This document shows, one piece after another, positions 22,289 through 59,466 of a stretch of 64,000 nucleotides of DNA. Position numbers and translations under genes: made by a program. The first letter of the stretch is position 1, and each line of letters opens with the position of its first letter. Source of the DNA: an uncultured virus (IMG/VR IMGVR_UViG_3300035696_000032) (lineage: Duplodnaviria > Heunggongvirae > Uroviricota > Caudoviricetes). The notes below the pieces were generated by a model. That model had not been told where the DNA came from. It did no database searches and was given only the letters and a program-made list of their open reading frames with translations. Where the stretch lies: the IMG/VR virus record IMGVR_UViG_3300035696_000032; one strand, given 5' to 3'.

Positions 22289-23332
22289 ATGGGGGCCAAA
22301 TCCGTTCGGACCTATACCTCGTCGTCAGACATCTTCGCCACCGGGACGACGCTTTCGATGACAAACGCGGGCACTTTGTCTGCCGCTTGTACGCACCCGT
22401 CTCAGGTGACCGACGTGCACACGTCGGAGCGGATTTGCACGGAGTGCGGTCTCGTCCTGGACTCCTCCCCGGTTGACATGCGCGGCATCAACACGTACGA
22501 CGTGATGGGCGCTCGACACGGGAGCGGTCTCTCGCACGGGCCAGCGACGCCGAGCTTCCGGTCGCTCTCCTCGCATCGCCCCATCGGATGGCAGGGCGTA
22601 CAGGGCTCCGAGAGGGTGAAGCGTCAGTGGCGCCGAGTCGCCGCCGCCGACCGGCACGACCTGGGGCATCGCTCGCGGTTCCTCGCGGGAGCCCACCAGG
22701 TCCGGTCGGTCGCGCTCGAACTCGGCTTACCCCCGCGGTCGGCCGACGAGGCGCTCAAGCTCCTCGTCCTGTGGCGCGAGTGCAAGTCGCGCCGCGTCCT
22801 CCCCAGGGTCGAGGTCACGATGGCGGCGGTCATCATCTACATCTCTCGCCGCGACCACCTTTTCATCAGCACGAGCCGAATCATCCACGCCTTCGGCCTG
22901 CGCTCTCGGTTCACCGCGCTGAAGGCGATGAACATGATGGAGCGAGACATGGGCTTCATGCCCGTCCAGCACTCGGCTCCCGAAATCATCGCTCACCTCG
23001 TCAACGAGTTCTCGCTGCCCACCGCCGTCGCGCGGGAGGCGGCAGGCTACGTCAGCGGTCCGCTTGAAGGTCCGTACATGCCCCAGGGTGTCGCGGGGGG
23101 AGCGGTCTACATGGCCGCGCGACAGCGGAACCTCACGGGCATCGGCGTTAATCAGGAGACCCTGGCACGGGCTTGCGGCGTCACGGCAGTGACCATCCGA
23201 AACCACTACCACAAGATTGCGAAAGCGAACGGCATCGACCCCGACGCGCCCGCCACACTGCACGGTCGATTCTCCGCCCCAGGGCACACTACATTCTGCC
23301 CGCAGTGGGCGGCCCTGGTCGGCGAGATGTGA
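22289..23332 (+). CDS. tfb: Transcription factor B (TFIIB family), divergent; start uncertain
   Basis: Zn ribbon C-x-H...ICTECGLVLD; two cyclin repeats; HTH QETLARACGVTAVTIRNHY; TTTAAGTA box near 22255. Confidence 0.85.
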   Translation: MGAKSVRTYTSSSDIFATGTTLSMTNAGTLSAACTHPSQVTDVHTSERICTECGLVLDSSPVDMRGINTYDVMGARHGSGLSHGPATPSFRSLSSHRPIGWQGVQGSERVKRQWRRVAAADRHDLGHRSRFLAGAHQVRSVALELGLPPRSADEALKLLVLWRECKSRRVLPRVEVTMAAVIIYISRRDHLFISTSRIIHAFGLRSRFTALKAMNMMERDMGFMPVQHSAPEIIAHLVNEFSLPTAVAREAAGYVSGPLEGPYMPQGVAGGAVYMAARQRNLTGIGVNQETLARACGVTAVTIRNHYHKIAKANGIDPDAPATLHGRFSAPGHTTFCPQWAALVGEM

Positions 23333-25493: not shown

Positions 25494-25494
25494 C

Positions 25495-25580
25495 CGGAGG
25501 GAGGGGGATTCGAACCCCCAACTTGCTTTCGCAAGACGGCGTTAGCACCGCCGCGCCGTACCGGGTTGGGCCATCCCTCC
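25495..25580 (-). tRNA. trnS: tRNA-Ser(GCT)
   Basis: Cloverleaf, long variable arm, G73; loop GT-GCT-AA (G32). Confidence 0.9.
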
Positions 25581-25584
25581 ATAG

Positions 25585-25668
25585 TGGTGGGCGCCGGATT
25601 CGAACCGACGAAGGACCTACGCCCAGGGGCTCTTGGGGCCCCCGCAGTTGCCGCTGTGCCAGCCCACC
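25585..25668 (-). tRNA. trnL: tRNA-Leu(CAA), C33
   Basis: GGGGC-CCCAAGA-GCCCC; long variable arm. Confidence 0.88.
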
Positions 25669-25677
25669 GATGAGGAG

Positions 25678-25753
25678 CGCGCCCGGCAGGATTTGAACCC
25701 GCATCGTTCCACGTTCGAAGCGTGGCGCCATGTCCAGGTTAGGCGACGGGCGC
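25678..25753 (-). tRNA. trnR: tRNA-Arg(TCG)
   Basis: CCACG-CTTCGAA-CGTGG. Confidence 0.9.
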
Positions 25754-25754
25754 A

Positions 25755-25832
25755 TGGCGGGCTCGGCGGGATTTGAACCCGCGACCTTCAGGTTCGCAAC
25801 CTGACGCGATGTCCAGGCTACGCTACGAGCCC
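25755..25832 (-). tRNA. trnR: tRNA-Arg(GCG), encoded CCA
   Basis: TCAGG-TTGCGAA-CCTGA. Confidence 0.92.
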
Positions 25833-25835
25833 AAG

Positions 25836-25923
25836 TGGTGCTGAGAGGATTTGAACCTCTACGCGGGCTGACCCCACGCCTGCTTCTAAGGCAGGTGCGA
25901 TTACCTGATTCCGCCACAGCACC
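25836..25923 (-). tRNA. trnL: tRNA-Leu(TAG)
   Basis: CCTGC-CTTAGAA-GCAGG; long variable arm. Confidence 0.9.
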
Positions 25924-26033
25924 GAACGCCCGAGGCGCCCGGTTCTTACCGTAGCCGACGCAGGAGGAGCGGGCCCAAACTACTTCGCCGACGGTCCTCG
26001 CGCGTCATCGCGGTGCCCATACACGCTTTACTA

Positions 26034-26303
26034 TTAAAATCCGCCGCTCATCAGTCCGAGCTTCGCGGCGCAGCCACACGCCACTCCGATGTGGCGCTCG
26101 ATGTAGAAGACCCAGCCGCCGTACTCGACCGAATAGGTCTCCGGCTTGAGATGGAAGACCGGTCCAGTAATCGTCATTCCGCAGTTCGCGCAGATGATGA
26201 CGCGCGGTCCGTCTGTGAGAATGACCTCGCCCAGAGCGCCCTTTTCGAAGGGCACTGTCCCCTTCGACCGGGGAATCGTTGGGTCCCAGGAGTCTTCGCC
26301 CAT
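26034..26303 (-). CDS. Small CxxC hypothetical protein within the tRNA cluster
   Basis: CANCG...ACGC. Confidence 0.55.
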   Translation of the reverse strand: MGEDSWDPTIPRSKGTVPFEKGALGEVILTDGPRVIICANCGMTITGPVFHLKPETYSVEYGGWVFYIERHIGVACGCAAKLGLMSGGF

Positions 26304-26314
26304 CCGTCGCCGCA

Positions 26315-26407
26315 TGGGCCTCCCAGGATTTGAACCCGGACCTCATCGTCTCTTGCTGTCTCCGACAGTCCCAAGCGACGGGTGCTACCAAGTTACACCA
26401 AAGGCCC
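26315..26407 (-). tRNA. trnP: tRNA-Pro(TGG) with a 20-nt BHB intron at 37/38
   Basis: CTTG/CAAG central helix with GGA and AGA bulges; intron hairpin CTGTC-GGA-GACAG. Confidence 0.92.
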
Positions 26408-26419
26408 GCGTGGTGCGGA

Positions 26420-26493
26420 TGGGGTCGGAGCGATTCGAACGCCCATTCGCGGTTCTGGAGACCGATGTCCTAGCCGAGTTAGACGACGACCCC
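26420..26493 (-). tRNA. trnW: tRNA-Trp(CCA), intronless
   Basis: TCGGT-CTCCAGA-ACCGC. Confidence 0.9.
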
Positions 26494-26508
26494 GAAGCGG
26501 ATGCTGAG

Positions 26509-26593
26509 CGGGCGCGGCAGGATTCGAACCTGCACCTTCCAGAGGAAGAGCGGTTTTCGGGACCGCCGCATTACCGGATTGTGCCACGCGCCC
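26509..26593 (-). tRNA. trnS: tRNA-Ser(CGA), C33
   Basis: GCGGT-CCCGAAA-ACCGC; long variable arm; G73. Confidence 0.88.
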
Positions 26594-26746
26594 TCGCGGC
26601 CTGAGTCGCTATCGCCATCCCGGCGATGAGCGGCCAGACCGCGACAGGGGTCGCGGTGGCTGAAGGCGCGTGAGCTTCATGGTATGTTTCCCATGCAGGG
26701 ACTAGTATTAAATCCCAGCGGCGCTCATCCACTTCAGAGGTGAAAT

Positions 26747-26819
26747 GGGCCCGTGGCGTCAACGGTAGCGCACCAGGCCCTTAACCTGCGAGGTCGGGGT
26801 TCGAATCCCCGCGGGCCCA
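26747..26819 (+). tRNA. trnK: tRNA-Lys(CTT), C33
   Basis: CCAGG-CCCTTAA-CCTGC. Confidence 0.88.
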
Positions 26820-26847
26820 TCGGAGGCTCGAAGGCTCGCATGACAAT

Positions 26848-26918
26848 CCGGCCGTGGCGGATGGGGACGCGCCCGGCTGTAGACCGGAGCCATGCAGGTT
26901 CGAATCCTGCCGGCCGGA
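26848..26918 (+). tRNA. trnY: tRNA-Tyr(GTA), archaeal/eukaryal type
   Basis: C1-G72, short variable loop, CT-GTA-GA. Confidence 0.88.
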
Positions 26919-26965
26919 CTACAGTCGGCTATCGTGAGCGGCCGAGCGGACCCGGAGATAGGTCC

Positions 26966-27039
26966 GCTCCTCTGGCGTAACCGGTAAGCGCACCTCGTTC
27001 TCGGCGAGGGGTGTGTGGGTTCGAATCCCACGGGGAGCA
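26966..27039 (+). tRNA. trnE: tRNA-Glu(CTC)
   Basis: CCTCG-TTCTCGG-CGAGG. Confidence 0.88.
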
Positions 27040-27045
27040 TCTCAT

Positions 27046-27119
27046 GGTTCCGTGGTCCAACCCGGTTAGGATGCGCGGTTGTCAGCCGCGTGGTCCGGGT
27101 TCAAATCCCGGCGGAACCG
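27046..27119 (+). tRNA. trnD: tRNA-Asp(GTC)
   Basis: CGCGG-TTGTCAG-CCGCG; G73. Confidence 0.9.
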
Positions 27120-27120
27120 C

Positions 27121-27873
27121 TCAGTGCGCGAAGCTCAGCATGTGCTTCCGCAGGTACCGCCGCACCGCGCGGACGAACGTGTCGTCGAACTGACCGCGCT
27201 TGTTGGGGTCCTGGAGGATGTCGCCGTAGAAGTCCGTCCGGTAGCCGGTGTCCTCCATCGCCTGCATGATGAGCGAGTATGGGAACATATCCCGGTCGAT
27301 GGCCTCCTTCAGGTCGCCGGTCCACCGCGTCTCGTCCGTGCCAGGGTCCCAGGAGACGTCGATGAGCTTTCGCCGCAGCAGCTTCAGGTAGTGCTCGATG
27401 GACTCGGAGATGGCAGTGTCCTCGGGCTTTTCACCGCCAGGGCGCGCGTTGAGGACCTTACCGGCGTAGTCGAGCGCGAGCCCCTCGTCGAACGGGAACC
27501 TCTGCCCATCCGTCGCGGTGTAGAGCCAGGGGCCGCCGACCCCCCGACCGGTCGTGCTGATGCTGCCGCCGATGTGGGCGAGGCGGAGCCCCAGCTCGAT
27601 GCGGTCGCGGGTCGTCATCGTGTGCCAGCCCCCGGTCCGCAGTACGAGTTTGTCGGGATAGTAGTGGACCACGTCCGTCTGGTGAAGGATGAGGCTGACG
27701 CTGCCATCCCCTTCCTGGACGAGGTAGGTGTTCCGGTCGACCTTCTTCCGACCCTTGCGACCGTGCAGTAGGAGTGTCTCCACCTGCTGCGGAAGGGGAT
27801 TGGACTTCGGGAGGACCCACGCCAGGTACGCCGAGCCGTCGCGGCGGCGCACGCGGACGAGGTTCTGCCACAC
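27121..27873 (-). CDS. Leader-tagged protein 8
   Basis: MWQNLVRVRRRDGSAYLAWVLPKSNP, then a domain with LRTGGWHTMTTRDRI. Confidence 0.8.
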   Translation of the reverse strand: MWQNLVRVRRRDGSAYLAWVLPKSNPLPQQVETLLLHGRKGRKKVDRNTYLVQEGDGSVSLILHQTDVVHYYPDKLVLRTGGWHTMTTRDRIELGLRLAHIGGSISTTGRGVGGPWLYTATDGQRFPFDEGLALDYAGKVLNARPGGEKPEDTAISESIEHYLKLLRRKLIDVSWDPGTDETRWTGDLKEAIDRDMFPYSLIMQAMEDTGYRTDFYGDILQDPNKRGQFDDTFVRAVRRYLRKHMLSFAH

Positions 27874-27890
27874 GGCTTAGCCCGTGCCGG

Positions 27891-28793
27891 TCATCCGGGA
27901 GTTGCGATATAAGACGTGGCTCGGGGCGAACCGGTCCAAACAACGCGGTCAAAGTTCGTGGCGTATATCTGCATGAGGACGTCCGTGTCCAGCGCCAGCC
28001 CGTTCAGTCGAAGGCCATCGAACCGGTAGTGCTCGCGCTCCATCATCCGCCGGTAGGTCCCCGACACCCACGCGAGCCACGCCGCGGTCTTGTACTCCGC
28101 CATCGTCACGACCATGTCGGTGCCGAAGAGGATGCGGTCGGCGTACTTCGTGAGCACCTCGCGGAAGGCTCGCGGCCTCTTCGAGATGCGGCGGAGCCCA
28201 TCGCGCAGGAAGTCAATCTGCCCCAGGCTCACGTCGGTGTAGAGCCCTGGGTTGTTGTCCATGAACTCCTGGAAGCGGACGAGGTTGGAGGTCGAGAGGC
28301 AGAAGTGCGGACAGATGACCTTCATCCTGGGGAAGGCCGACAGGACCCGGCGGAACTCCTCGCCGTACTTCCCGCAGTTGACGTGAAAGAGGACCGGGAT
28401 TCCCTCCTTCTCGCAGAGGTCGTAGACGCCGAGCATCGACGGGCAATCGAGGGGCGTCTCGCCGTGAAAGTTCGAGTGGCCGCCGTACAGCTTGAGGCCA
28501 CTGGCGCCCTTCCTGAGGTAGCCGCGCAATCGCTCGACGTTGTCCGTGTCGGCCGGGTCCAGGGTCGGGAAGGCGAGGAACCGCAGCGGCCACCGCCTCG
28601 CAATCTCCAGGACTACCTCGTTGTAGTGGGTCTCGCGCTCGAACCCCGACCGGTCGAGCATGATGGTCGCCTCGGGGCTGCCGACGGCGACGCTCGCGTT
28701 GACCCCGACCGCCTCCATCGCCTCCAGGTACTTCGGCACGCAGGCGACCGATTGGAAGTGTTCGTGGACGTTGACGATGCCCTGCGGTCTCAT
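27891..28793 (-). CDS. Amidohydrolase-family (TIM-barrel) metallohydrolase
   Basis: VNVHEH, GLKLY, VLFH, ICPHF, ILFGTD. Confidence 0.88.
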   Translation of the reverse strand: MRPQGIVNVHEHFQSVACVPKYLEAMEAVGVNASVAVGSPEATIMLDRSGFERETHYNEVVLEIARRWPLRFLAFPTLDPADTDNVERLRGYLRKGASGLKLYGGHSNFHGETPLDCPSMLGVYDLCEKEGIPVLFHVNCGKYGEEFRRVLSAFPRMKVICPHFCLSTSNLVRFQEFMDNNPGLYTDVSLGQIDFLRDGLRRISKRPRAFREVLTKYADRILFGTDMVVTMAEYKTAAWLAWVSGTYRRMMEREHYRFDGLRLNGLALDTDVLMQIYATNFDRVVWTGSPRATSYIATPG

Positions 28794-28829
28794 CGGAACC
28801 GCTAAATCCCAGGTACTTCATGGATTTAC

Positions 28830-28926
28830 GATGTCCGCTCGTTCGGTCGAGTCGCCCGGCGTACGGCCGGTGGTACCCCGCTACCCCGGCGGGGAGATGG
28901 AAGGCCCCCTCGAACGGGTGGACATC
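28830..28926 (+). ncRNA. Putative structured RNA upstream of a tRNA cluster
   Basis: 16-bp closing stem with two G-U pairs enclosing two hairpins. Confidence 0.45.
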
Positions 28927-28967
28927 CCAATTCTCGGTGACCCCGGGCCCTTTACCAAACCGTAGAC

Positions 28968-29040
28968 GCTCCCTGAGTCTGTTGGTAGAGGATGCACCGC
29001 CTTCGACGGTGCGGGCCGAGTTCGATTCTCGGAGGGAGCA
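28968..29040 (+). tRNA. trnE: tRNA-Glu(TTC), C33
   Basis: CACCG-CCTTCGA-CGGTG. Confidence 0.85.
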
Positions 29041-29046
29041 CTTCAT

Positions 29047-29118
29047 GGGTCCGTGGCGTAGTGGTCGCGCAGCCGGCCTTTAACCGGTCAGATGCGGGTT
29101 CGATTCCTGCCGGGCCCA
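29047..29118 (+). tRNA. trnK: tRNA-Lys(TTT), C33
   Basis: GCCGG-CCTTTAA-CCGGT. Confidence 0.88.
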
Positions 29119-29121
29119 TAT

Positions 29122-29192
29122 GCGGGCCTGGTTCAGTAGGAGAACGCTCCGCTGAAGACGGAGGGAGGCCGGTGCAATTCCGGCGGCCCGCA
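29122..29192 (+). tRNA. trnF: tRNA-Phe(GAA), atypical T loop
   Basis: CTCCG-CTGAAGA-CGGAG; T loop TGCAATT. Confidence 0.85.
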
Positions 29193-29194
29193 CC

Positions 29195-45007: not shown

Positions 45008-45018
45008 TATTTATATAT
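45008..45018 (+). promoter_or_regulatory. Class E TATA box of the aRF1 gene
   Basis: TATTTATATAT; GGAGG before ATG 45055. Confidence 0.75.
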
Positions 45019-45054
45019 TGCGAGGGCCATCCTGAATCGGGAGGCACAGGAACG

Positions 45055-46182
45055 ATGAGTTCAGAGCCGAATCGGCAGGGCTCCGCCAAAGGGCCCGGGA
45101 TGCCTCCCGACGCCACGGACGCCCGCGGTCGCATCTGACTCCGCCGCCTCCTCCACGACCTTGAGTCGGAGGAGGGACGGGCGACCGAACTGGTCTCGCT
45201 TGTCCTGCCGCCCACGCGCAACATCCTCGACGCGCAGAAGCGTATCGCCGACGAACTGACCCAGGCGGCGAACATCAAGAGCCGCACCACGCGGATGGGC
45301 GTCCTTGACTCCCTCCAGAAGGTCCTCTCGACCCTGCGTCAGTACCGCTTTACTCCCTCGAACGGCCTCGCCGTCTACGCGAGCCCCGAATCGGTCCGTG
45401 TCGTGGAGCCGTCCGAGCCATTCCTTCGGGAGGTCTACTTCTGCGGTCCGAAGTTCATGCTCGACCCGCTGCGCGAGCAGTTGGAGGATAAGGCACAGTA
45501 CGCTCTCATCGTCCTCGACCGGAAGGAGGTCACGCTCGGGCTCCTCCGCGGCTCGCGGGTCATCGAGTTGGACTCGAAGGAGAGCCACGTCCCGCCGAAG
45601 CACGACGCGGGAGGCCAGTCCCAGCACCGGTGGGAACGGCAGACGGAGCAGGCGGCGCACGAGTTCTTCGTGAAAATCGGGGACATGGCGAACCGCTCGT
45701 TCCTCGACCAGGTCGACAGGCTGGACGGGGTGCTCATCGGCGGACCCGGGGACACAAAGCGTCAGTGGGCGGAAGGTGAGTTTATGGACTACCGCCTGGT
45801 CCGGAAGGTTCTCCGCCCGCTCGTGGACGTCAGCTACACCAACGAGTTCGGGCTCCAGGAGTTGGTCCGCTCCGCGGGAGACCTTCTCGCACATTTGTCA
45901 CTACAAAAGGACCAAATCGTAGTGACGAAGTTCGCAGATGCGGTGCGCCAGGGGCTGGCCGAGTACGGCCATGCTGAGGTGCTGCGGGCCCTCGAAGAGC
46001 GGCGCGCGAGCGCGCTCGTCCTCTACGAAGGCGTCGACTCCCGATTCCACGACGTGGTGGATGTCGCCGTGGGCCAGGGCGTGCCGGTGCACCTCCTCGC
46101 TGAGGAGGGCGCGTCGGGCGCGGAGTTCCTGAAGGGCTTCGGGGGCCTCGGCGTTATCCTTCGCTATCGGCCAACCGCTTGA
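45055..46182 (+). CDS. prf1: Peptide chain release factor aRF1/eRF1 with in-frame TGA at 45136-45138
   Basis: GRATELVSL, NIKS, YFCGPKF (YxCxxxF), GGQS, FGGLGVILRY; NIKS lies upstream of the ORF-track start at 45295. Confidence 0.9.
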
Positions 46183-46667: not shown

Positions 46668-46695
46668 CACCCGGTCTCCGGGATTTAAGCCCTAG
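46668..46695 (-). promoter_or_regulatory. Class L promoter motif
   Basis: AGGGCTTAAATC-N7-CCGGGTG. Confidence 0.7.
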
Positions 46696-47831
46696 TTCGT
46701 GACCACGACGGGGATGTCGACCGTACTTTGCGCCGTGCTGGCGGGAATGGTCACGGCGAACAGGGCAACTCCCTCGGACACGGTCGCGGTCCCGCTCTGG
46801 ACGCCGTTCACCAGGACGTTCAGGGTCGTCCCGTCGGGGAGGTTGGTGGTCGCTGTGACCACGACTTCGCCGCCCGTAGGTCCGACTGTGCGCGGCCTCA
46901 GCCGGATGCGGATGCTTGACGTCCCGCCGGTGGTGGGCGTCTCCTTGACGTAGGCCGTGTTCGAGACGACAGAGGCCGGGGGTGTGATGGGGGGCGTAGG
47001 CCCCGGCGTCGGTGTGGGGGTCGGCGTGGGTGTGGGCGCCGGCGGTGTGACGACCGGCGGGGCGGAGCCAATCGCCGCGAGGTCGGCCTGGAGTTGGGCC
47101 ATGTTGAACCCCTCGATGGACGTGCCCTGCGCGCTCAGCCAGTCGGGCGAGAGGATGGCGTACGCCTCGTCCGCGTAGGCGTAGAAGAAGGCCCAGGACA
47201 TCGCCTTCACCGTGCCCCATGTGATGACGTAGACGTTGTTCGCGTCGTAGCCGACGATGGGGACGCAGTGGCCGTTGTCCGGGTCGGGCGGGTTCGCAGC
47301 GAAGCCTCCGGCGGGGACCGCGGTCCAGTCCACGTCGAGGAGGTTCCCGTCCGGCGGATTGACCGCGTAGTCGGGGAGGGCGAGGCCGATGTAGCAGCCG
47401 CCGAAGATGGCGACGGCGTCCTGGACCTCGGTCTGATTGCTGACAGTGACGGAAGCGTACGCACCAATCTTGTCCGGCGTGGTCGTGGTCGGGATGCCCG
47501 TGTTCTGCCAGTACTGGAGGACCGTCAGCATGTCCGCGCCTTGGTCCACGCCACCGTCCACGACGTTGTACGCCGCGAGGATGTCGGCATCGGGGATGAT
47601 TTCCGGCGTCCCGTCGGCCTGCTGTGTCCACTGTTCGACAAGGTGGCCCGCAGCGGCGCAGGTGCAGTCGCCGTAGGTGTCGTTCCCCATCATGGGCCAT
47701 GTCGAGACCGCCGTGTAGTACGTGACCGTCGCGGGCGGAGAAGGAAGGGCCGCGGTGAGGTACTTTCCGAACTTCAGGGTCCGCTTGTCGAGGCGGGGTG
47801 GCTTCTTGCCCAGGCGGAACTTCGGTGGCAT
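46692..47831 (-). CDS. Papain-like cysteine peptidase with PT linker and Ig-like module
   Basis: NDTYGDCTCAA (Cys), GHCVPIVGYD (His), ITWG. Confidence 0.8.
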   Translation of the reverse strand: MPPKFRLGKKPPRLDKRTLKFGKYLTAALPSPPATVTYYTAVSTWPMMGNDTYGDCTCAAAGHLVEQWTQQADGTPEIIPDADILAAYNVVDGGVDQGADMLTVLQYWQNTGIPTTTTPDKIGAYASVTVSNQTEVQDAVAIFGGCYIGLALPDYAVNPPDGNLLDVDWTAVPAGGFAANPPDPDNGHCVPIVGYDANNVYVITWGTVKAMSWAFFYAYADEAYAILSPDWLSAQGTSIEGFNMAQLQADLAAIGSAPPVVTPPAPTPTPTPTPTPGPTPPITPPASVVSNTAYVKETPTTGGTSSIRIRLRPRTVGPTGGEVVVTATTNLPDGTTLNVLVNGVQSGTATVSEGVALFAVTIPASTAQSTVDIPVVVTN

Positions 47832-47838
47832 GACCCAG

Positions 47839-47866
47839 CCACCCGGTTCGGCGGATTTAAGCCCTG
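47839..47866 (-). promoter_or_regulatory. Class L promoter motif
   Basis: AGGGCTTAAATC-N7-CCGGGTGG. Confidence 0.7.
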
Positions 47867-47869
47867 GTC

Positions 47870-48685
47870 TCAGACCCAACTGAACAGCCACTTGATGAAG
47901 CGGACGATGGCAGCCCACCAGGACTCGGCCGGACTCTCGGTGACCGCTGAGAGGTCGGACTGAAGTTGGGCGAGGTCGACGCCGGAGGGCGCTTCGCCCT
48001 GAGCGAGCCAATCCGTGTCGATGAGCGCGTACGCTTCGTCACAGTACGTCGTAACGAACGCCCAGGTCGCCTGATACCGTGCTCCCCAGGAGATGACCGT
48101 GACCCCGTTCGCGTCGTAGGCGACGACCGGGACCGCATGTCCGCCCCAGGAGCCGGGAGCCCCGTTGCCCGTGGCCCCACCGGGTGGAACCGTCCATGTC
48201 GTCTGGCCCTGGGCCGACAACGGCATCTGGAGCCCGAGGTAGGTGTTGCCGAAGATGTCCGTGGCCGTCTCGACCATCTGTTGGTCGACCTCGACCTCCG
48301 CGTAGGCGTTGAGCGTGTCGCCGCCGACGCCGTTCTGACGCCAGTAGTTCAGGACGTCGAGGACGACCGCTCCGTCGTCGTTCGCGCCCGTCGTGGGGTT
48401 GTAGCCGCTGACCGCCTCGTAGAACGACAGGATGGTCGAGTCGGGCAGGATGACCGGTGCCGCCTCGGTGTCGGACGTCCACTCCTGGATGCAGTGCCCG
48501 ACGGCCGCGCAGGTGCAGTCGCCAAGCGTGTCGTTGAGCATCGCGCCGAGCGGTCCCATCTTCTCGGACCAGTCGACGGAAGCCGGGGGCGCGGGCAAAG
48601 CCTCGGGCTTCAGGTACTTCTTCAGTTGGAGTGTTCGCGGGTCTACGCGCTTCGGTTTCTTGCCGAGCTTGAACTTGCCGACCAC
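47870..48685 (-). CDS. Papain-like cysteine peptidase, paralogue with amphipathic C-terminal helix
   Basis: NDTLGDCTCAA, GGHAVPVVAYD, ISWG; WWAAIVRFIKWLF; AGGGCTTAAATC near 48706-48718. Confidence 0.8.
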   Translation of the reverse strand: MVGKFKLGKKPKRVDPRTLQLKKYLKPEALPAPPASVDWSEKMGPLGAMLNDTLGDCTCAAVGHCIQEWTSDTEAAPVILPDSTILSFYEAVSGYNPTTGANDDGAVVLDVLNYWRQNGVGGDTLNAYAEVEVDQQMVETATDIFGNTYLGLQMPLSAQGQTTWTVPPGGATGNGAPGSWGGHAVPVVAYDANGVTVISWGARYQATWAFVTTYCDEAYALIDTDWLAQGEAPSGVDLAQLQSDLSAVTESPAESWWAAIVRFIKWLFSWV

Positions 48686-48799: not shown

Positions 48800-48876
48800 A
48801 GCCCCGTTGGCTAATCGGAAAGGCTACCTCGTTCTGGCCGAGGATTGTGGGGGTTCGAATCCTCCCGGGGCTACCA
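48800..48876 (+). tRNA. trnQ: tRNA-Gln(CTG), encoded CCA
   Basis: A1-U72; CCTCG-TTCTGGC-CGAGG. Confidence 0.9.
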
Positions 48877-48878
48877 GC

Positions 48879-48950
48879 AGCCCCGGGGAGAGACGGCAAT
48901 CTCGGCACTCCTTGAAAGTGCAGAACTCGGTTCGACTCCGGGCGGGGCTA
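48879..48950 (+). tRNA. trnQ: tRNA-Gln(TTG), C33
   Basis: A1-U72; GCACT-CCTTGAA-AGTGC. Confidence 0.85.
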
Positions 48951-48968
48951 TGGAGAACCCATTCGCGT

Positions 48969-49040
48969 GGCCTCCGTAGTGTAGCGGGTGCACAGCGGTC
49001 TGTGAAGCCGCGGGGCCGAGTTCAACCCTCGGCGGAGGCC
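48969..49040 (+). tRNA. trnH: tRNA-His(GTG)
   Basis: Encoded G-1, C73, CT-GTG-AA. Confidence 0.88.
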
Positions 49041-49042
49041 CC

Positions 49043-49462
49043 TCAACCGAAGAGCGCGGACAACCCGCTGACCATTTCGTTCTCGGCGCGGAGGCGCTTG
49101 ACGATGCGGTCGATGAGCGCATCGCGCTCCATGTTGTCCTCCTCCTGACCGACCTGGATGAGGTCCTCCCATTCGTAGCCGAGTTCCCGGGCCAGCGACT
49201 GGAGCGCGTCCACCCATCCGCGACGGTAGGCTGCCAACCGCTGGTAGGTCTTCGGGTCGGCGCCGGGCCCAGGTCCGAGCGGGTCTTCGTAGACCGCGGG
49301 AACCTCCTGCGGGACGCGGATGTTCGCCTCCGTCACCATGTAAATCTTCTCGGGGAGTACGACTTCGAGCGGCAGGTCGACCGCGGCCTTGGGCGGCTTC
49401 ATCTCCTCCGGATTCGGGCGGACGGGCGGTGGGTGCTTCAGTCGAACCTTGGGGAAGCTCAT
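49043..49462 (-). CDS. Hypothetical protein with basic-NP N-terminus
   Basis: MSFPKVRLKHPPPVRPNP; LARELGYEWED. Confidence 0.7.
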   Translation of the reverse strand: MSFPKVRLKHPPPVRPNPEEMKPPKAAVDLPLEVVLPEKIYMVTEANIRVPQEVPAVYEDPLGPGPGADPKTYQRLAAYRRGWVDALQSLARELGYEWEDLIQVGQEEDNMERDALIDRIVKRLRAENEMVSGLSALFG

Positions 49463-49599
49463 ATCAGGCCCCTCCACCCACGAGCGAGGAATTAAGAACT
49501 AGTGCGAGCGTGGGTGGGGTAATGGCGCACGCACGGCAGGAGGCCGCAGCAGCAGTAGCCGAACTCGGTCCCACGAATCGGGGACCGGGCGTCGGGCGT

Positions 49600-49671
49600 G
49601 GGCCTGTGCGGTAATCGGAAACCTCCGGAGCCCGCAACTCCGAATTGCGCGTTCAACTCGCGCCAGGTCCA
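49600..49671 (+). tRNA. trnA: tRNA-Ala(CGC), C33
   Basis: G3:U70; CGGAG-CCCGCAA-CTCCG. Confidence 0.82.
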
Positions 49672-49682
49672 TTCACTCCGAC

Positions 49683-49754
49683 AGCCCGGTGGTGTAACGG
49701 CGAGCATGGGAACCCTACAAGTTCTCGGCGGGGGTTCGACTCCCTCTCGGGCTA
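49683..49754 (+). tRNA. trnV: tRNA-Val(TAC), C33
   Basis: GGAAC-CCTACAA-GTTCT; unusual A1-U72. Confidence 0.82.
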
Positions 49755-49755
49755 T

Positions 49756-49829
49756 GCGGACGTGGTGTCAATCCGGCAGCACGACGGCCTTCCAAGCCGA
49801 CGGTCTGGGTTCAAATCCCGGCGTCCGCA
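49756..49829 (+). tRNA. trnG: tRNA-Gly(TCC)
   Basis: ACGGC-CTTCCAA-GCCGA. Confidence 0.9.
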
Positions 49830-49839
49830 CCTCACATTT

Positions 49840-49911
49840 GCCGCGGAAGCTGAACGGCTAAGCGCCCGGCTGTTAACCGGAGGTTCGCAGGTTCGACTCC
49901 TGCCCGCGGCG
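49840..49911 (+). tRNA. trnN: tRNA-Asn(GTT)
   Basis: CCCGG-CTGTTAA-CCGGA; G73. Confidence 0.88.
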
Positions 49912-50075
49912 TTTGAGCGGGGGAAGCGGACGGATTTCGTACTCGTCCGGAGGGAACGTGAGCATCTTCAGGAGCGCGACGACCTCCGCCGCCCGTCGGC
50001 GAGTGAATGGCCCCAGCGCGTACGACCCATCGAGTCCAGGGCGGCGGACGATGACCTCGAACTTCGGACGTTCAG

Positions 50076-50146
50076 TGCGCCCGGCGAGAGTTGAACTCGC
50101 TCTGCCACGTTGGCAACGTGGCGTCATGCCGGTAGACCACGGGCGC
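50076..50146 (-). tRNA. trnG: tRNA-Gly(GCC)
   Basis: CCACG-TTGCCAA-CGTGG. Confidence 0.9.
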
Positions 50147-50152
50147 GTCGAA

Positions 50153-50227
50153 CGCCCTCGGTGAGATTCGAACTCACGACGCACCGCTTAGAAGGCGGCT
50201 CCTTTGTCCAGGCTAAGGTACGAGGGC
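50153..50227 (-). tRNA. trnR: tRNA-Arg(TCT)
   Basis: GCCGC-CTTCTAA-GCGGT. Confidence 0.9.
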
Positions 50228-50282
50228 ATCGCCGGCGTGTCGACCGACTTTCCCTCGTCTCCTCGTGAGCGCCATCGGCGGA

Positions 50283-50353
50283 TAGCGGAACCAGGAATCG
50301 AACCTGGGCTCCCGGCTTATGAGGCCGGCCCACGACCTTCGTGGTATCCCGCT
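50283..50353 (-). tRNA. trnM: tRNA-Met(CAT), initiator-like acceptor stem
   Basis: AGCGGGA/TTCCGCT (A1-U72); CCGGC-CTCATAA-GCCGG. Confidence 0.85.
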
Positions 50354-50405
50354 GCTCACGGGATGCACCCGCAGATATTTGAACCTGCGCGATTACTAGG
50401 AACTC

Positions 50406-50478
50406 GGGCTCCTGGCGCAATCGGAAACGCACCCGCTTGGCATGTGGGAGATTCCGGGTTCGAGTCCCGGGGGGTCCA
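50406..50478 (+). tRNA. trnA: tRNA-Ala(GGC)
   Basis: G3:U70; TT-GGC-AT. Confidence 0.9.
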
Positions 50479-51315
50479 CTAGGGCATCAAACGCTTCCTG
50501 GCGAGGAGGCGTTGCGCTTCCTTGGGAGACCGGGTGGGCAGACCCAGACGTTGAAACGCGCAGGTCAGGCCGGTCGCCGACAATCCATGCCGCGCTGCGA
50601 CTCGCTTGAGACTGTCGCCCGATTCAACATAGTCCCGGTGGGCAGACTCCACAGCCGCCCTGTCCGTAACGTTGAGCCCGCCTCCCGCGCGGTTATTTTC
50701 GCTGGGCTTGGCCCTAGACGACCGTACGAGATTCCACGTCTGCTGTGCGCTCAGCCCGAGAGTGCGGCCGGCTGCTGCCTTCGTCCTTCCCGCTTCAACC
50801 ATCCTCCAGAACTGTTCCCTCACCGCGGGTCGAACGCGCCGACGAGTTTCGTACCGGTTCCGTACGACCCCGGCCGCGTGAGCCAGTTTGTTGACGGCGC
50901 TGGGGCTAATGCCCAGTCGTCGTCCGGTGGCCTCTACGGACAGTCCATGTCTGTAGAACGATACGGCGGATGAAGCAGTCCATTCATCGAGTTCGAGGCT
51001 CTCTCCGTGCCCACGGATTCGAAGGCCGGCACGTCTGAAGCTCTTCAGGATTCCGGCCAGCGACATCCCGTACTTGCGGCCAACTGCTTCGGCGGAGAGA
51101 CGGTCGTTGATGTACTCCGCGTGGGCCTGACGAAGCTCCCGGTTGGAGAGTTTCCTTTTCGGCTTATGGCTTGGCAGTCCTGCCCGATGGACCCAGAGGA
51201 GAACGGTAGACTTGGGAAGCTGTAATGTGATTCCAACCTGCTTCGCCGTGTTGCCCTTCGAATACAGGTCCAACGCCTTTTGATGGATGGCGGGGGGGTA
51301 GCTATCCCAGGTCAT
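50479..51315 (-). CDS. Multi-HTH DNA-binding protein
   Basis: About five HTH-like units, e.g. SLKRVAARHGLSATGL. Confidence 0.75.
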   Translation of the reverse strand: MTWDSYPPAIHQKALDLYSKGNTAKQVGITLQLPKSTVLLWVHRAGLPSHKPKRKLSNRELRQAHAEYINDRLSAEAVGRKYGMSLAGILKSFRRAGLRIRGHGESLELDEWTASSAVSFYRHGLSVEATGRRLGISPSAVNKLAHAAGVVRNRYETRRRVRPAVREQFWRMVEAGRTKAAAGRTLGLSAQQTWNLVRSSRAKPSENNRAGGGLNVTDRAAVESAHRDYVESGDSLKRVAARHGLSATGLTCAFQRLGLPTRSPKEAQRLLARKRLMP

Positions 51316-51323
51316 CGCAACGC

Positions 51324-52406
51324 CTACCGCTGGAACGGCTTCCCCGGTTTGACCTCGTTCTTGACGATGGGGACGTGGTCCCACCGCTCCTCGCTCTGGA
51401 CGTGGCCCTCGCGGACGTACTTAGCTATGGCGTTGACGCGCCATGTTTCTCCGCTGTTGGAGTTACGACTTTCGTAACCCTCGTGCATCCCGAACACGTA
51501 CGGGTACGCGAGGCGGACGACGATTCCCTCGTGGCCGCGCTTGATGACGTCGTTGGCGAGGCGGAAGAGCCGGACGCGGAGCGCATCCTCGTTCGGGTAC
51601 TCCTTCCCGTACTCCAGGACCGGGACCGTCGGGAAGCCGATGAGCTTCGCGGCCTGCACGACGTGCGGCCAGGAGCCGAACATCTGCTCCTTCTGGTCGT
51701 AGACGCCAAAGACCATGAACAGCGAGTCGAGCTGGAGCTTCCCGGTGTAGTGGATGGAGTGCCGCGCGTAGAGGTTCTCTCCGAAGATTTGGACGCCCTC
51801 GGGGATTTGCTTAGCGAACCCGGCGTGTGCCGCCTTCAGCCAGTCGAACGAGGCGTGGTCCGCGGAGTGTCCGTTCCGCGCCGCGACCAGGTCGCGCGTC
51901 AGGAGCGTGTTGCCGCCGTCCATCTTGATGGTGATGCAGAGCGGCTGGTGGACGAACGGCTTCAGGTCGGGGAGGTTGATGTCGTTCTCCTCCACGCCCG
52001 GGCTCATGGGGAGGTACGGCGTGGAGGGGTACTTCACGCGCTCCCGGTTCGGCTGCTTGAGCACGACGCCCCACTTGTCGTACCGTTGGGCCGGGTCCCA
52101 TCCGGACGGCAGGACGACGTCCTCGATTTCGGCCCAGTAGCGGAGGACGTCGGGTTGAAGCGTGCAGGTTTCCGCCCCCCATAGGTGGTGGAACGGACAG
52201 AGGGTGGCGCCGTTCTCGACGAAGTAACCGGCCTCCTCGCCCGCGGCGGTCCAGAGCCGTCGCTCGATGATGTGGTGAGCGACGACCTCGACCTCGTGGC
52301 CTGCCTCGACCTCCTGGGCGTACCCGCAGCCCGGGACGACGCAGGTCTTGTCATCGCGTTCGAAGACCGCCTCGCGGAACTCCTCGCGCGTCAGGAGTGT
52401 CGGCAT
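51324..52406 (-). CDS. HNH-like domain fused to an ATP-dependent RNA ligase
   Basis: FERDDKTCVVPGC, AHHII, NGATLC; KYPSTPYLP, KMDGGN (KxDG), FGEN, EGIVVR, AKYV. Confidence 0.85.
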   Translation of the reverse strand: MPTLLTREEFREAVFERDDKTCVVPGCGYAQEVEAGHEVEVVAHHIIERRLWTAAGEEAGYFVENGATLCPFHHLWGAETCTLQPDVLRYWAEIEDVVLPSGWDPAQRYDKWGVVLKQPNRERVKYPSTPYLPMSPGVEENDINLPDLKPFVHQPLCITIKMDGGNTLLTRDLVAARNGHSADHASFDWLKAAHAGFAKQIPEGVQIFGENLYARHSIHYTGKLQLDSLFMVFGVYDQKEQMFGSWPHVVQAAKLIGFPTVPVLEYGKEYPNEDALRVRLFRLANDVIKRGHEGIVVRLAYPYVFGMHEGYESRNSNSGETWRVNAIAKYVREGHVQSEERWDHVPIVKNEVKPGKPFQR

Positions 52407-52524
52407 CTTTCCTCAATCGAGCAGCCGAACGGGGAGGGCTCGACCCCTCCGCGACCCAAGAGGGTGTCGAGCCCCTCAGAGGCTGCTTTCATAGCCGCCC
52501 GGCAGAGACGATTAGGTCTCTCCG

Positions 52525-52535
52525 ATATATAAATA
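52525..52535 (-). promoter_or_regulatory. Class E TATA box of the ligase operon
   Basis: TATTTATATAT. Confidence 0.7.
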
Positions 52536-52538
52536 TAG

Positions 52539-52609
52539 AGCCACCGGCAGGAGTTGAACCCGCATCCCCAACTTACCATGCTGGGATTCGTCCGCCGAAC
52601 TGCGGTGGC
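52539..52609 (-). tRNA. trnT: tRNA-Thr(GGT)
   Basis: CCAGC-ATGGTAA-GTTGG (A32); U73. Confidence 0.85.
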
Positions 52610-52616
52610 ATGTGAG

Positions 52617-52687
52617 AGCCCCAGGAGGGAGTTGAACCCTCTTGGACGATTTTGCGGACCGTCGCGTATCCGACCTGCCCCTGGGGC
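52617..52687 (-). tRNA. trnC: tRNA-Cys(GCA), C33
   Basis: ACGGT-CCGCAAA-ATCGT; U73. Confidence 0.82.
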
Positions 52688-52688
52688 A

Positions 52689-52759
52689 AGCCGCTAGAGG
52701 GAGTCGAACCCCCGCTCGGACTTTACGAAAGTCCTGGACTGCCGTTATCCTACAGCGGC
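52689..52759 (-). tRNA. trnT: tRNA-Thr(CGT)
   Basis: GGACT-TTCGTAA-AGTCC. Confidence 0.88.
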
Positions 52760-52760
52760 A

Positions 52761-52835
52761 TGGAGCCGCTCGTCGGATTTGAACCGGCATCCCCGATTTA
52801 CAAGACCGGGATTCTGCGGATTGAACTAGAGCGGC
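52761..52835 (-). tRNA. trnT: tRNA-Thr(TGT), encoded CCA
   Basis: CCGGT-CTTGTAA-ATCGG. Confidence 0.88.
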
Positions 52836-59295: not shown

Positions 59296-59308
59296 GTCGA
59301 TGGAGAGG

Positions 59309-59379
59309 TAGGCCCGGGGAGAGTCGAACCCCCTTCTCCAATTTATCAGAATGGTGTCCTGCCGTTAGACGACGGGCCC
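59309..59379 (-). tRNA. trnI: tRNA-Ile(GAT)
   Basis: CCATT-CTGATAA-ATTGG. Confidence 0.85.
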
Positions 59380-59392
59380 GTTGCGATGCGAA

Positions 59393-59466
59393 TGGGCGCG
59401 GCGAGAATCGAACTCGCGTCTACGTCAGCTTATAAGGCTGGAGCAAGACCACTATGCGACGCGCCC
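59393..59466 (-). tRNA. trnI: tRNA-Ile(TAT)
   Basis: CCAGC-CTTATAA-GCTGA. Confidence 0.85.

Follow-up and report, generated by a model that had tools for sequence, protein, structure and literature searches.

The gene for an archaeal class-I release factor (aRF1) in a virus-like element is interrupted near its start by an in-frame TGA that is real, conserved, and located inside the coding sequence. The reading we favor, to which we assign a probability of roughly 60%, is that programmed readthrough of the resulting UGA gates aRF1 synthesis and is sensitive to release-factor activity. The element is represented here by a stretch of 64,000 nucleotides (hereafter "the window"; 65.7% GC), which is part of a 98,235-bp metagenome contig (L001). 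The window carries 32 tRNA genes covering all 20 amino acids, along with genes for a TFIIB-like protein, beta-helix proteins, an RNA ligase, a NADAR protein, and a methyltransferase, and its search for a capsid or terminase gene gave no match. We infer that the element is viral from PHROG matches and from an IMG/VR contig (L077) on which an aRF1 gene whose product is 45% identical lies beside 14 tRNA genes. The nearest cellular aRF1s, at 35 to 43% identity, are a weak hint that Thermoplasmata are the host group.

The arrangement at the 5′ end of the gene was described in an earlier note on this DNA, and the sequence bears out each of its elements. A TATA-like sequence and a GGAGG precede an ATG, from which 27 sense codons lead to a TGA in the context ATC TGA CTC, and the same frame then continues for 347 codons (LRRLLHDLESEEGRATELVSL...NIKS...GGQ...) to a terminator TGA (Table 1). 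Of the two ATG codons in the interval from the promoter to the stop, 45055 and 45100, neither is out of frame; the second went unmentioned in the earlier note. The promoter-like element, TTTATATA, is present in six copies in the window, wherein shuffled sequences yield an expectation of 0.01. No internal Shine-Dalgarno sequence is found upstream of the recoding site. It had also been claimed that no ATG, GTG, or TTG separates the stop from NIKS. Indeed, the first such codon in frame is the ATG at 45295, downstream of NIKS, and thus the stop-recognition domain can be complete only if the UGA is decoded.

Table 1. Features of the interrupted aRF1 gene and a candidate decoder tRNA, by position in the window
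Feature	Position	Strand	Remarks
TATA-box-like promoter element TTTATATA of the aRF1 gene	45010..45017	+	flanking 17 nt identical in L003
GGAGG, possible Shine-Dalgarno sequence, 10 nt before ATG 45055	45040..45044	+	within a ~75-nt insertion missing from L003
Leader MSSEPNRQGSAKGPGMPPDATDARGRI, 27 sense codons opening at ATG 45055-57, second in-frame ATG at 45100	45055..45135	+	last 7 codons align with the entire L003 leader
In-frame TGA, codon 28, proposed readthrough site, AUC UGA CUC	45136..45138	+	4/4 runs; same column in L002/L003
52 codons from the stop to the first canonical start; rest of helix alpha-1, strand beta-1, NIKS (45271-82)	45139..45294	+	dN/dS 0.165 vs L003
Candidate hairpin CCUCCUCC (45147-54) / GGAGGAGG (45168-75)	45147..45175	+	starts 8 nt past the stop; paired bases identical in L003
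aRF1 body, 347 codons and terminator TGA 46180-82	45139..46182	+	YFCGPKF 45436-56, GGQ 45610-18; Pfam eRF1_1/2/3
tRNA-Trp(CCA), U27-C43 mismatch, 4-bp anticodon stem; candidate UGA decoder	26420..26493	-	6/31 window tRNAs also unpaired at 27:43

By homology, the gene encodes a streamlined but complete aRF1, putative in activity. The region after the stop matches the Pfam families PF03463 (eRF1_1; E = 4e-6), PF03464 (eRF1_2; E = 7e-35), and PF03465 (eRF1_3; E = 5e-9), and a sequence search of the PDB returned the aRF1 structures 4af1 (E = 3e-52) and 3agk (E = 4e-51). The motifs ANIKS, YFCGPKF (of the form YxCxxxF), and GGQ are all intact. We take NIKS, YxCxxxF, and GGQ to be the stop-recognition and catalytic motifs of aRF1/eRF1 class-I release factors. 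An AlphaFold model of the readthrough product, with the TGA rendered as Trp and folded with 19 relatives, has a mean pLDDT of 88.3. Residues 1 to 21 are disordered in this model, helix alpha-1 comprises residues 20 to 38, and residue 28, which corresponds to the stop, is inside this helix. Foldseek placed the model closest to aRF1 4af1 (TM 0.84, E = 2e-34), with Pelota/Dom34 appearing only at ~1e-14, and the modeled product has the aRF1 fold rather than the Pelota/Dom34 fold. A scan of IMG/VR with the window protein returned nothing, and a phage collection searched by DNA and by protein gave no match. The reference genomes, scanned with an alignment of the family (A1), yielded only the cellular Thermoplasmata aRF1s, which served as controls.

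The internal stop is not a product of assembly. Contigs covering it were available from 4/4 sequencing runs, namely X1, possibly the source sample itself, and three from other samples (X3, X4, and X5), with zero differing letters among them, a finding that rules out assembly error and confirms the codon as the earlier note had read it. Among the runs listed as containing the stretch, none was of RNA. Both of the closest proteins in the database are called as 5′-truncated, P0002 at 295 aa (71% identity) and P0003 at 308 aa (68%). In the DNA of the P0002 genotype (L002/L003), the gene reads ATG GAC GCT GCG TCT CGC TTG TGA CTC CGC CGC…, wherein a 7-codon leader is followed by a stop at the same column as that of the window. 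Identity between the window and L003 genes is 77% at the DNA level and 74% at the protein level, and dS is 0.65. Because L002 and L003 are identical over the aRF1 gene, conservation at the DNA level refers to one other genotype. The support lent by P0003 (91.8-kb contig) and P0112 (44-kb contig) consists of truncated gene calls. A cluster look-up yielded no longer versions of these two proteins, an IMG/VR scan with P0112 returned nothing, and a reference-genome scan with P0003 likewise returned nothing.

The two interrupted genes differ in how they begin. L003 carries the same TATA element, centered ~27 nt before its ATG, and this spacing suggests that its mRNA is leaderless. Its ATG is positioned at the start site of intact relatives, and its N-terminus is collinear with that of intact P0004 (M-D-A-A-S-R-L-*-L-R-R versus M-E-D-V-E-R-L-M-L-K-R). 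Relative to L003, the window has gained the ~75-nt insertion, which carries GGAGG and new in-frame ATG codons, whereas the L003 ATG aligns with an ACG (45115-17) in the window. Intact relatives differ from one another in the amino acid at the stop column (M, T, A, Q, E, S, or G; never Cys), which suggests that no special residue is required there. The gene on L077, a closer relative, is intact, and thus the stop is not required for the family as a whole.

Uninterrupted starts are the rule among the control loci. A canonical start is present 5 to 18 codons upstream of the first-helix column, with no stop between, in 59 of the 61 aRF1 loci from metagenomes, the exceptions being L036, which is cut by a contig end, and L064. 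Thermoplasmata genomes gave 79 normal loci out of 80, with one at a contig edge. For the pooled cellular aRF1 controls, 138/141 are normal, two are cut by contig ends, and the third is L064. The interrupted start is specific to viral aRF1 genes.

Three more virus-like contigs (L064, L084, and L091) carry differing 5′ interruptions of aRF1. The L064 gene consists of an ATG, 44 codons, AAT TGA CAG, and the aRF1 body; past the stop, the first canonical start is a TTG in strand beta-1. Many members of its clade, some of them on contigs of 126 to 220 kb, are called from starts just past the stop column. The L064 contig (127.9 kb, 38% GC) also encodes a TnpB-type transposase, kinases, a PurZ-like enzyme, and scattered tRNAs, and a tRNA-Trp(CCA) gene is located ~770 nt upstream of the aRF1 ATG. 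In L084, an IMG/VR contig of 76.6 kb, GGTG precedes ATG ACC ATT AAC AAC TAC TGT CTT TAG, and the aRF1 body (333 aa) continues in the +1 frame. Its site, UGU CUU UAG CAC, is identical at 12/12 nt to the second stop of the mimivirid L093. In PMC3521657, frameshifting at CUU UAG C is demonstrated experimentally in Mimivirus and likened to the RF2 site CUU UGA C. Relatives of L084 at 76 to 85% identity are called truncated, and those at 55 to 63% identity are intact, with short N-termini. The third contig, L091 (61 kb, with 21 tRNA genes just upstream), has an in-frame ATA TAG CCA between NIKS and YxCxxxF. IMG/VR scans returned nothing for the L064 protein and its own contig only for the L084 protein.

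As positive controls, mimivirid readthrough stops already in the literature were recovered by the same screen in L090 and L093, where the sites read UGA CUA as compared to UGA CUC in the window and L003. Loci guessed to be Marseillevirus-like, GVMAG loci, L077, L086, and L087 were found intact. Recoding of virus-borne class-I release-factor genes thus appears to be recurrent. This recurrence makes the regulatory reading much more credible than it would be from the window alone, and we regard that interpretation as plausible and considerably strengthened by the comparative evidence.

Of the explanations that dispense with readthrough, one holds that the segment before the stop is a leader peptide (uORF) and that aRF1 synthesis begins past the stop, either by reinitiation or from a non-canonical start codon. 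The third residue past the stop is already aligned to profile position 2 of Pfam eRF1_1, where the match begins, and thus a protein begun there would retain the entire Pfam domain. In addition, the L089 and L091 homologues begin at strand beta-1, which suggests that helix alpha-1 is not always needed, and the leaders differ in length, at 27 codons in the window versus 7 in L003. However, no canonical start lies in frame before 45295, and the sole CTG in this interval, codon 18 past the stop, corresponds to CTC in L003. The model also places the residues preceding the stop in a helix, and they align with those of intact relatives (R-L/I at −2 and −1). Moreover, the L003 ATG occupies the start position of those relatives, and both upstream ATGs of the window are in frame with the aRF1 body. 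Leader-peptide control of this kind is therefore unlikely.

A different explanation is that UGA is decoded as sense by a dedicated system, either in a host with reassigned or ambiguous UGA or by a suppressor tRNA encoded elsewhere in the genome; in one variant, the viral aRF1 restores termination at UGA. Release factors and numerous tRNAs are common in phages with recoded stops. The L064 TGA-C falls at a column occupied by Trp in three full-length relatives (P0258, P0260, and P0265; ENW-Q.Y), and the ~34 kb of the 98-kb contig that lie outside the window could hold a suppressor tRNA. Codon usage in the window argues otherwise. Among 78 rough, GC3-based gene calls, the terminators are TGA in 48, TAG in 23, and TAA in 7. 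Several of these TGAs are located at ATGA/GTGA start/stop overlaps, and the aRF1 gene itself is terminated by TGA. Where a strong coding signal extends for at least 60 codons on both sides of a stop triplet, there is 1 TGA versus 5 TAG, and hence no excess of coding-flanked TGAs. The UCA anticodon is present in 0/32 of the window tRNAs (64 kb of the 98-kb contig), and the window lacks the pattern of a genome-wide UGA reassignment (code 4/25-like). With TGA as the main terminator and no UCA-anticodon tRNA in the window, a changed genetic code is unlikely. In L064, similarly, TGA terminates 6/29 rough ORFs, one of them at an ATGA overlap. We consider sense decoding by a dedicated system to be quite improbable.

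The same counts bear on the claim in the earlier note that UGA-C is a leaky context, which does not hold as a distinguishing feature here. The base that most commonly follows a terminator TGA in the window is C (19/48), and TGA CTC terminates one other gene call. The tetranucleotide alone therefore cannot make the internal stop special, and genuine stops in the window do not avoid this weak-termination context. L064 differs from the window in this respect, as C follows none of its genuine TGA stops (0/6).

We next consider whether the functional product could be the 295-aa protein that begins at ATG 45295 and lacks NIKS, perhaps as a decoy or a ribosome-binding factor, or whether the gene is simply decaying. 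Gene callers did yield a 295-aa protein both for the window and for P0002. The pattern of substitution between the window and L003 points elsewhere. The whole gene has a dN/dS of 0.283 at a dS of 0.65 (P = 2e-13). In the 52 codons that separate the stop from ATG 45295, there are 11 synonymous and 6 non-synonymous changes, and thus 6/17 changes are non-synonymous versus a share of 73.5% under neutrality (P = 1e-3). With a dN/dS of 0.165 versus 0.286 for the remainder of the gene, this segment is the more strongly constrained of the two by purifying selection. Such selection indicates that the NIKS-bearing segment is translated and argues against the 295-aa protein as the sole product made. The persistence of the stop over a dS of 0.65, along with purifying selection, rules out a recent pseudogene, in keeping with the view of the earlier note that the gene is not a pseudogene, and NIKS, YxCxxxF, and GGQ are all preserved. 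We judge a NIKS-less product or a decaying gene to be very unlikely. The longest run of identity with L003, 38 nt, directly follows the stop, although this is suggestive only; a 36/36 match such as that past the stop loses significance when every window position is counted (~1.3 expected).

Selenocysteine insertion, for which UGA is the codon, is exceedingly improbable, given that the stop column is variable and never Cys in intact relatives, that an Rfam scan of the window recovered tRNAs only, the gathering score being reached by neither a SECIS nor a tRNA-Sec family, and that the likely host group is not known to use selenocysteine.

According to the programmed readthrough reading, translation would begin at ATG 45055 or 45100, or, in L003, at an ATG with which a leaderless mRNA probably begins. 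A few codons on, the ribosome would reach the UGA, where most ribosomes would terminate and release a short peptide, and a fraction would insert an amino acid via a near-cognate tRNA and proceed to full-length aRF1. The most likely insertion would be Trp from tRNA-Trp(CCA), and the element encodes one with a 4-bp anticodon stem. Competition between aRF1, both host and viral, and the tRNA would decide between these two fates. Because the UGA is contested by aRF1 itself, aRF1 output would be inverse to termination activity, wherein more activity would give less aRF1 and less activity would give more. This would constitute a built-in negative feedback, as with RF2 and Mimivirus. The feedback proposed in the earlier note, wherein viral aRF1 would be made only at times of weak termination, is a prediction from this architecture. 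We infer the readthrough, the inserted residue, and the regulation of expression from sequence comparison.

The near-cognate tRNAs proposed in the earlier note, Trp(CCA), Cys(GCA), and Arg(TCG), are all encoded in the window, but nothing singles them out statistically. The U27-C43 mismatch of the window tRNA-Trp(CCA) leaves an anticodon stem of 4 bp. According to PMC13092985, tRNA-Trp species with a 4-bp anticodon stem give higher UGA readthrough in Blastocrithidia and Condylostoma, and in E. coli when engineered. In Blastocrithidia and Condylostoma the top anticodon-stem pair is an unpinned C-U (PMC13092985), and the same pair is a pyrimidine-pyrimidine mismatch, U-C, in the window tRNA. Blastocrithidia and Condylostoma reassign UGA genome-wide or in a context-dependent manner, whereas TGA remains the main terminator of the window. 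An unpaired 27:43 occurs in 6/31 window tRNAs analyzed, that is, in five besides tRNA-Trp, and is thus not specific to it. The L064 tRNA-Trp has a 5-bp anticodon stem.

An odd 'tggg' tRNA (26315-26407) was considered as a suppressor and rejected, as it is by eye a tRNA-Pro(UGG) with an intron of ~17 nt after position 37. The hairpin just past the stop is a candidate stimulator of readthrough. The first two substitutions past the stop relative to L003 fall in an unpaired bulge and just beyond the helix. However, its folding energy does not differ significantly from that of shuffled sequences (z = −0.85, −1.99, and −0.03), and the paired bases are invariant in L003, with no covariation available. 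A frameshift in the window gene is unnecessary, as homology stays in the zero frame.

Autoregulation of RF2 by recoding is the textbook case in bacteria. There, as in the window, a release factor's own gene is interrupted early and in frame by a stop that the factor itself recognizes (CUU UGA C in prfB), an arrangement that makes expression inverse to termination activity. Unlike the window gene, RF2 synthesis needs a change of frame, and RF2 and aRF1 belong to unrelated protein families. The CUU UAG C of L084 is the analogue of the bacterial RF2 +1 shift site. To our knowledge, the one viral parallel to RF2 recoding is in eukaryotic giant viruses.

That parallel is close. Mimivirus R726 and Megavirus mg280, as described in PMC3521657, share with the window a virus-borne gene of eRF1/aRF1 type and an in-frame UGA-C in the N-domain upstream of NIKS. 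A CUN Leu codon follows the stop in each case (UGA CUA there, UGA CUC in the window). PMC3521657 proposes tRNA-Trp as the decoder and autoregulation as the purpose, as we do for the window. The giant viruses differ in having a eukaryotic host and large, AT-rich genomes, and in combining readthrough with a +1 frameshift, two recoding events of which the window would use only the first. The window stop is ~22 codons nearer the N-terminus than that of Mimivirus, in helix alpha-1. UGA-C is rare at genuine stops in Mimivirus (PMC3521657), whereas it is the commonest TGA context in the window. Readthrough in the Mimivirus case is demonstrated experimentally in E. coli (PMC3521657), whereas that in the window is predicted from sequence.

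Plant eRF1-1 offers a further likeness. According to PMC5397192, readthrough at the stop of its own mRNA responds to release-factor level and sets expression. The plant stop is the natural terminator and acts through 3′-UTR-induced mRNA decay (NMD) (PMC5397192), whereas the stop at codon 8 (L003) or 28 (window) would gate protein synthesis itself.

The expectation in the earlier note that such a gene had not been described for an archaeal virus is upheld by the literature searched, which yielded no report of an archaeal virus with an aRF1 gene. The available part of a review of archaeal recoding (PMC8211752) contains neither 'aRF1' nor 'near-cognate', and a survey of archaeal tailed viruses (PMC8651126), in its accessible portion, lists HGTV-1 with 36 tRNAs and describes no viral release factor. 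According to PMC8037382, Sec, Pyl, and a −1 frameshift are the only firmly established cases of recoding in archaea. Near-cognate UGA readthrough would thus be a new type of event in archaea. The window gene would represent a known principle, that of RF2 and Mimivirus, in a new setting of archaeal virus-like elements and the archaeal translation apparatus.

A broader proposal, which we advance tentatively and consider doubtful, is that large, tRNA-rich archaeal viruses carry a self-contained circuit for tuning termination, made up of a recoding-gated aRF1 and their own tRNA-Trp as decoder, here with an unpinned 4-bp stem. Its sites would be lineage-specific (UGA readthrough, UGA at a Trp codon, and an RF2-like +1 shift) and would have at least three independent origins. 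Such a circuit might sense and reset the host balance between termination and readthrough, for example after host translation shut-off or tRNA-targeting defense, and would be the first programmed near-cognate readthrough in archaeal translation. Irrespective of this proposal, the logic of RF2, if borne out in virus-borne aRF1 genes of archaea, would represent strong convergence on one regulatory principle, given at least three different realizations in separate lineages. It would also offer a compact, testable cassette of promoter, 7-codon leader, UGA, and ~40 nt downstream, and it draws attention to an undescribed group of archaeal virus-like elements whose tRNA genes serve all 20 amino acids and which also encode a termination factor.

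In three virus-like contigs, the gene for aRF1, the archaeal class-I release factor, is interrupted in differing ways. The aRF1 gene of contig L084 requires a +1 frameshift at codon 9, and its shift site, UGU CUU UAG CAC, is the same as the mimivirid frameshift site (the second stop of L093) at 12 of 12 nucleotides and resembles the site of RF2, the bacterial release factor that is autoregulated by a +1 shift. Truncated gene calls are found in close relatives of L084 as well. On contig L064, an in-frame TGA-C stands at an alignment column that is Trp in three full-length relatives. A tRNA-Trp(CCA) gene lies ~770 nt upstream, and many long-contig members of this clade have a called start just 3′ of the TGA/Trp column.

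The gene on contig L091 carries an in-frame TAG-C, with NIKS on one side and the YxCxxxF motif on the other, an arrangement that could reflect readthrough, TAG recoding or gene decay. Directly upstream are 21 tRNA genes. Some virus-borne aRF1 homologues, those of L091 and contig L089, do not have helix α1 and begin right at strand β1 (MKI[T/S]L…).

Locations of features on the contigs and in the window.
Feature	Location	Strand	Details
aRF1 gene	L084:2476-3502		IMG/VR contig, 76.6 kb
aRF1 gene	L064:9839-11053		metagenome contig, 127.9 kb, 38% GC
Two-domain aRF1-like gene	L091:2492-3150		IMG/VR contig, 61.3 kb
TFIIB-like protein	window 22289-23332	+	weak matches: zinc ribbon and cyclin repeat
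tRNA gene clusters	window 25494-29194, 48800-52835, 59307-59466		
TTTATATA copies	window 37173, 38496, 45010, 52526, 60280, 61348		
Two adjacent paralogous genes	window 46692-48011, 47870-48685	-	match phrog_19005 (function unknown)
RNA ligase gene	window 51324-52406	-	Pfam RNA_ligase, phrog_24030

In the window, TTTATATA occurs six times (0.01 expected) and probably represents a promoter class of the element. The TFIIB-like protein could be the element's own transcription initiation factor. The phrog_19005 paralogues lie directly downstream of the window aRF1 gene on the opposite strand.

The 32 tRNA genes of the window, in three clusters, represent all 20 amino acids and include tRNA-Ile(UAU). 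The window and L002, a contig whose aRF1 protein is 74% identical, have these genes arranged alike, as Gln-Gln-His … Ala-Val-Gly-Asn … Gly-Arg … Thr-Cys-Thr-Thr. tRNA clusters flank the RNA ligase gene, whose product may act in tRNA repair or splicing. At 26315-26407 (-), where ARAGORN called a four-base anticodon, ‘tggg’, the sequence reads by eye as a tRNA-Pro(UGG) with an intron of ~17 nt after position 37, which thus appears to be a virus-borne tRNA with an archaeal-type intron.
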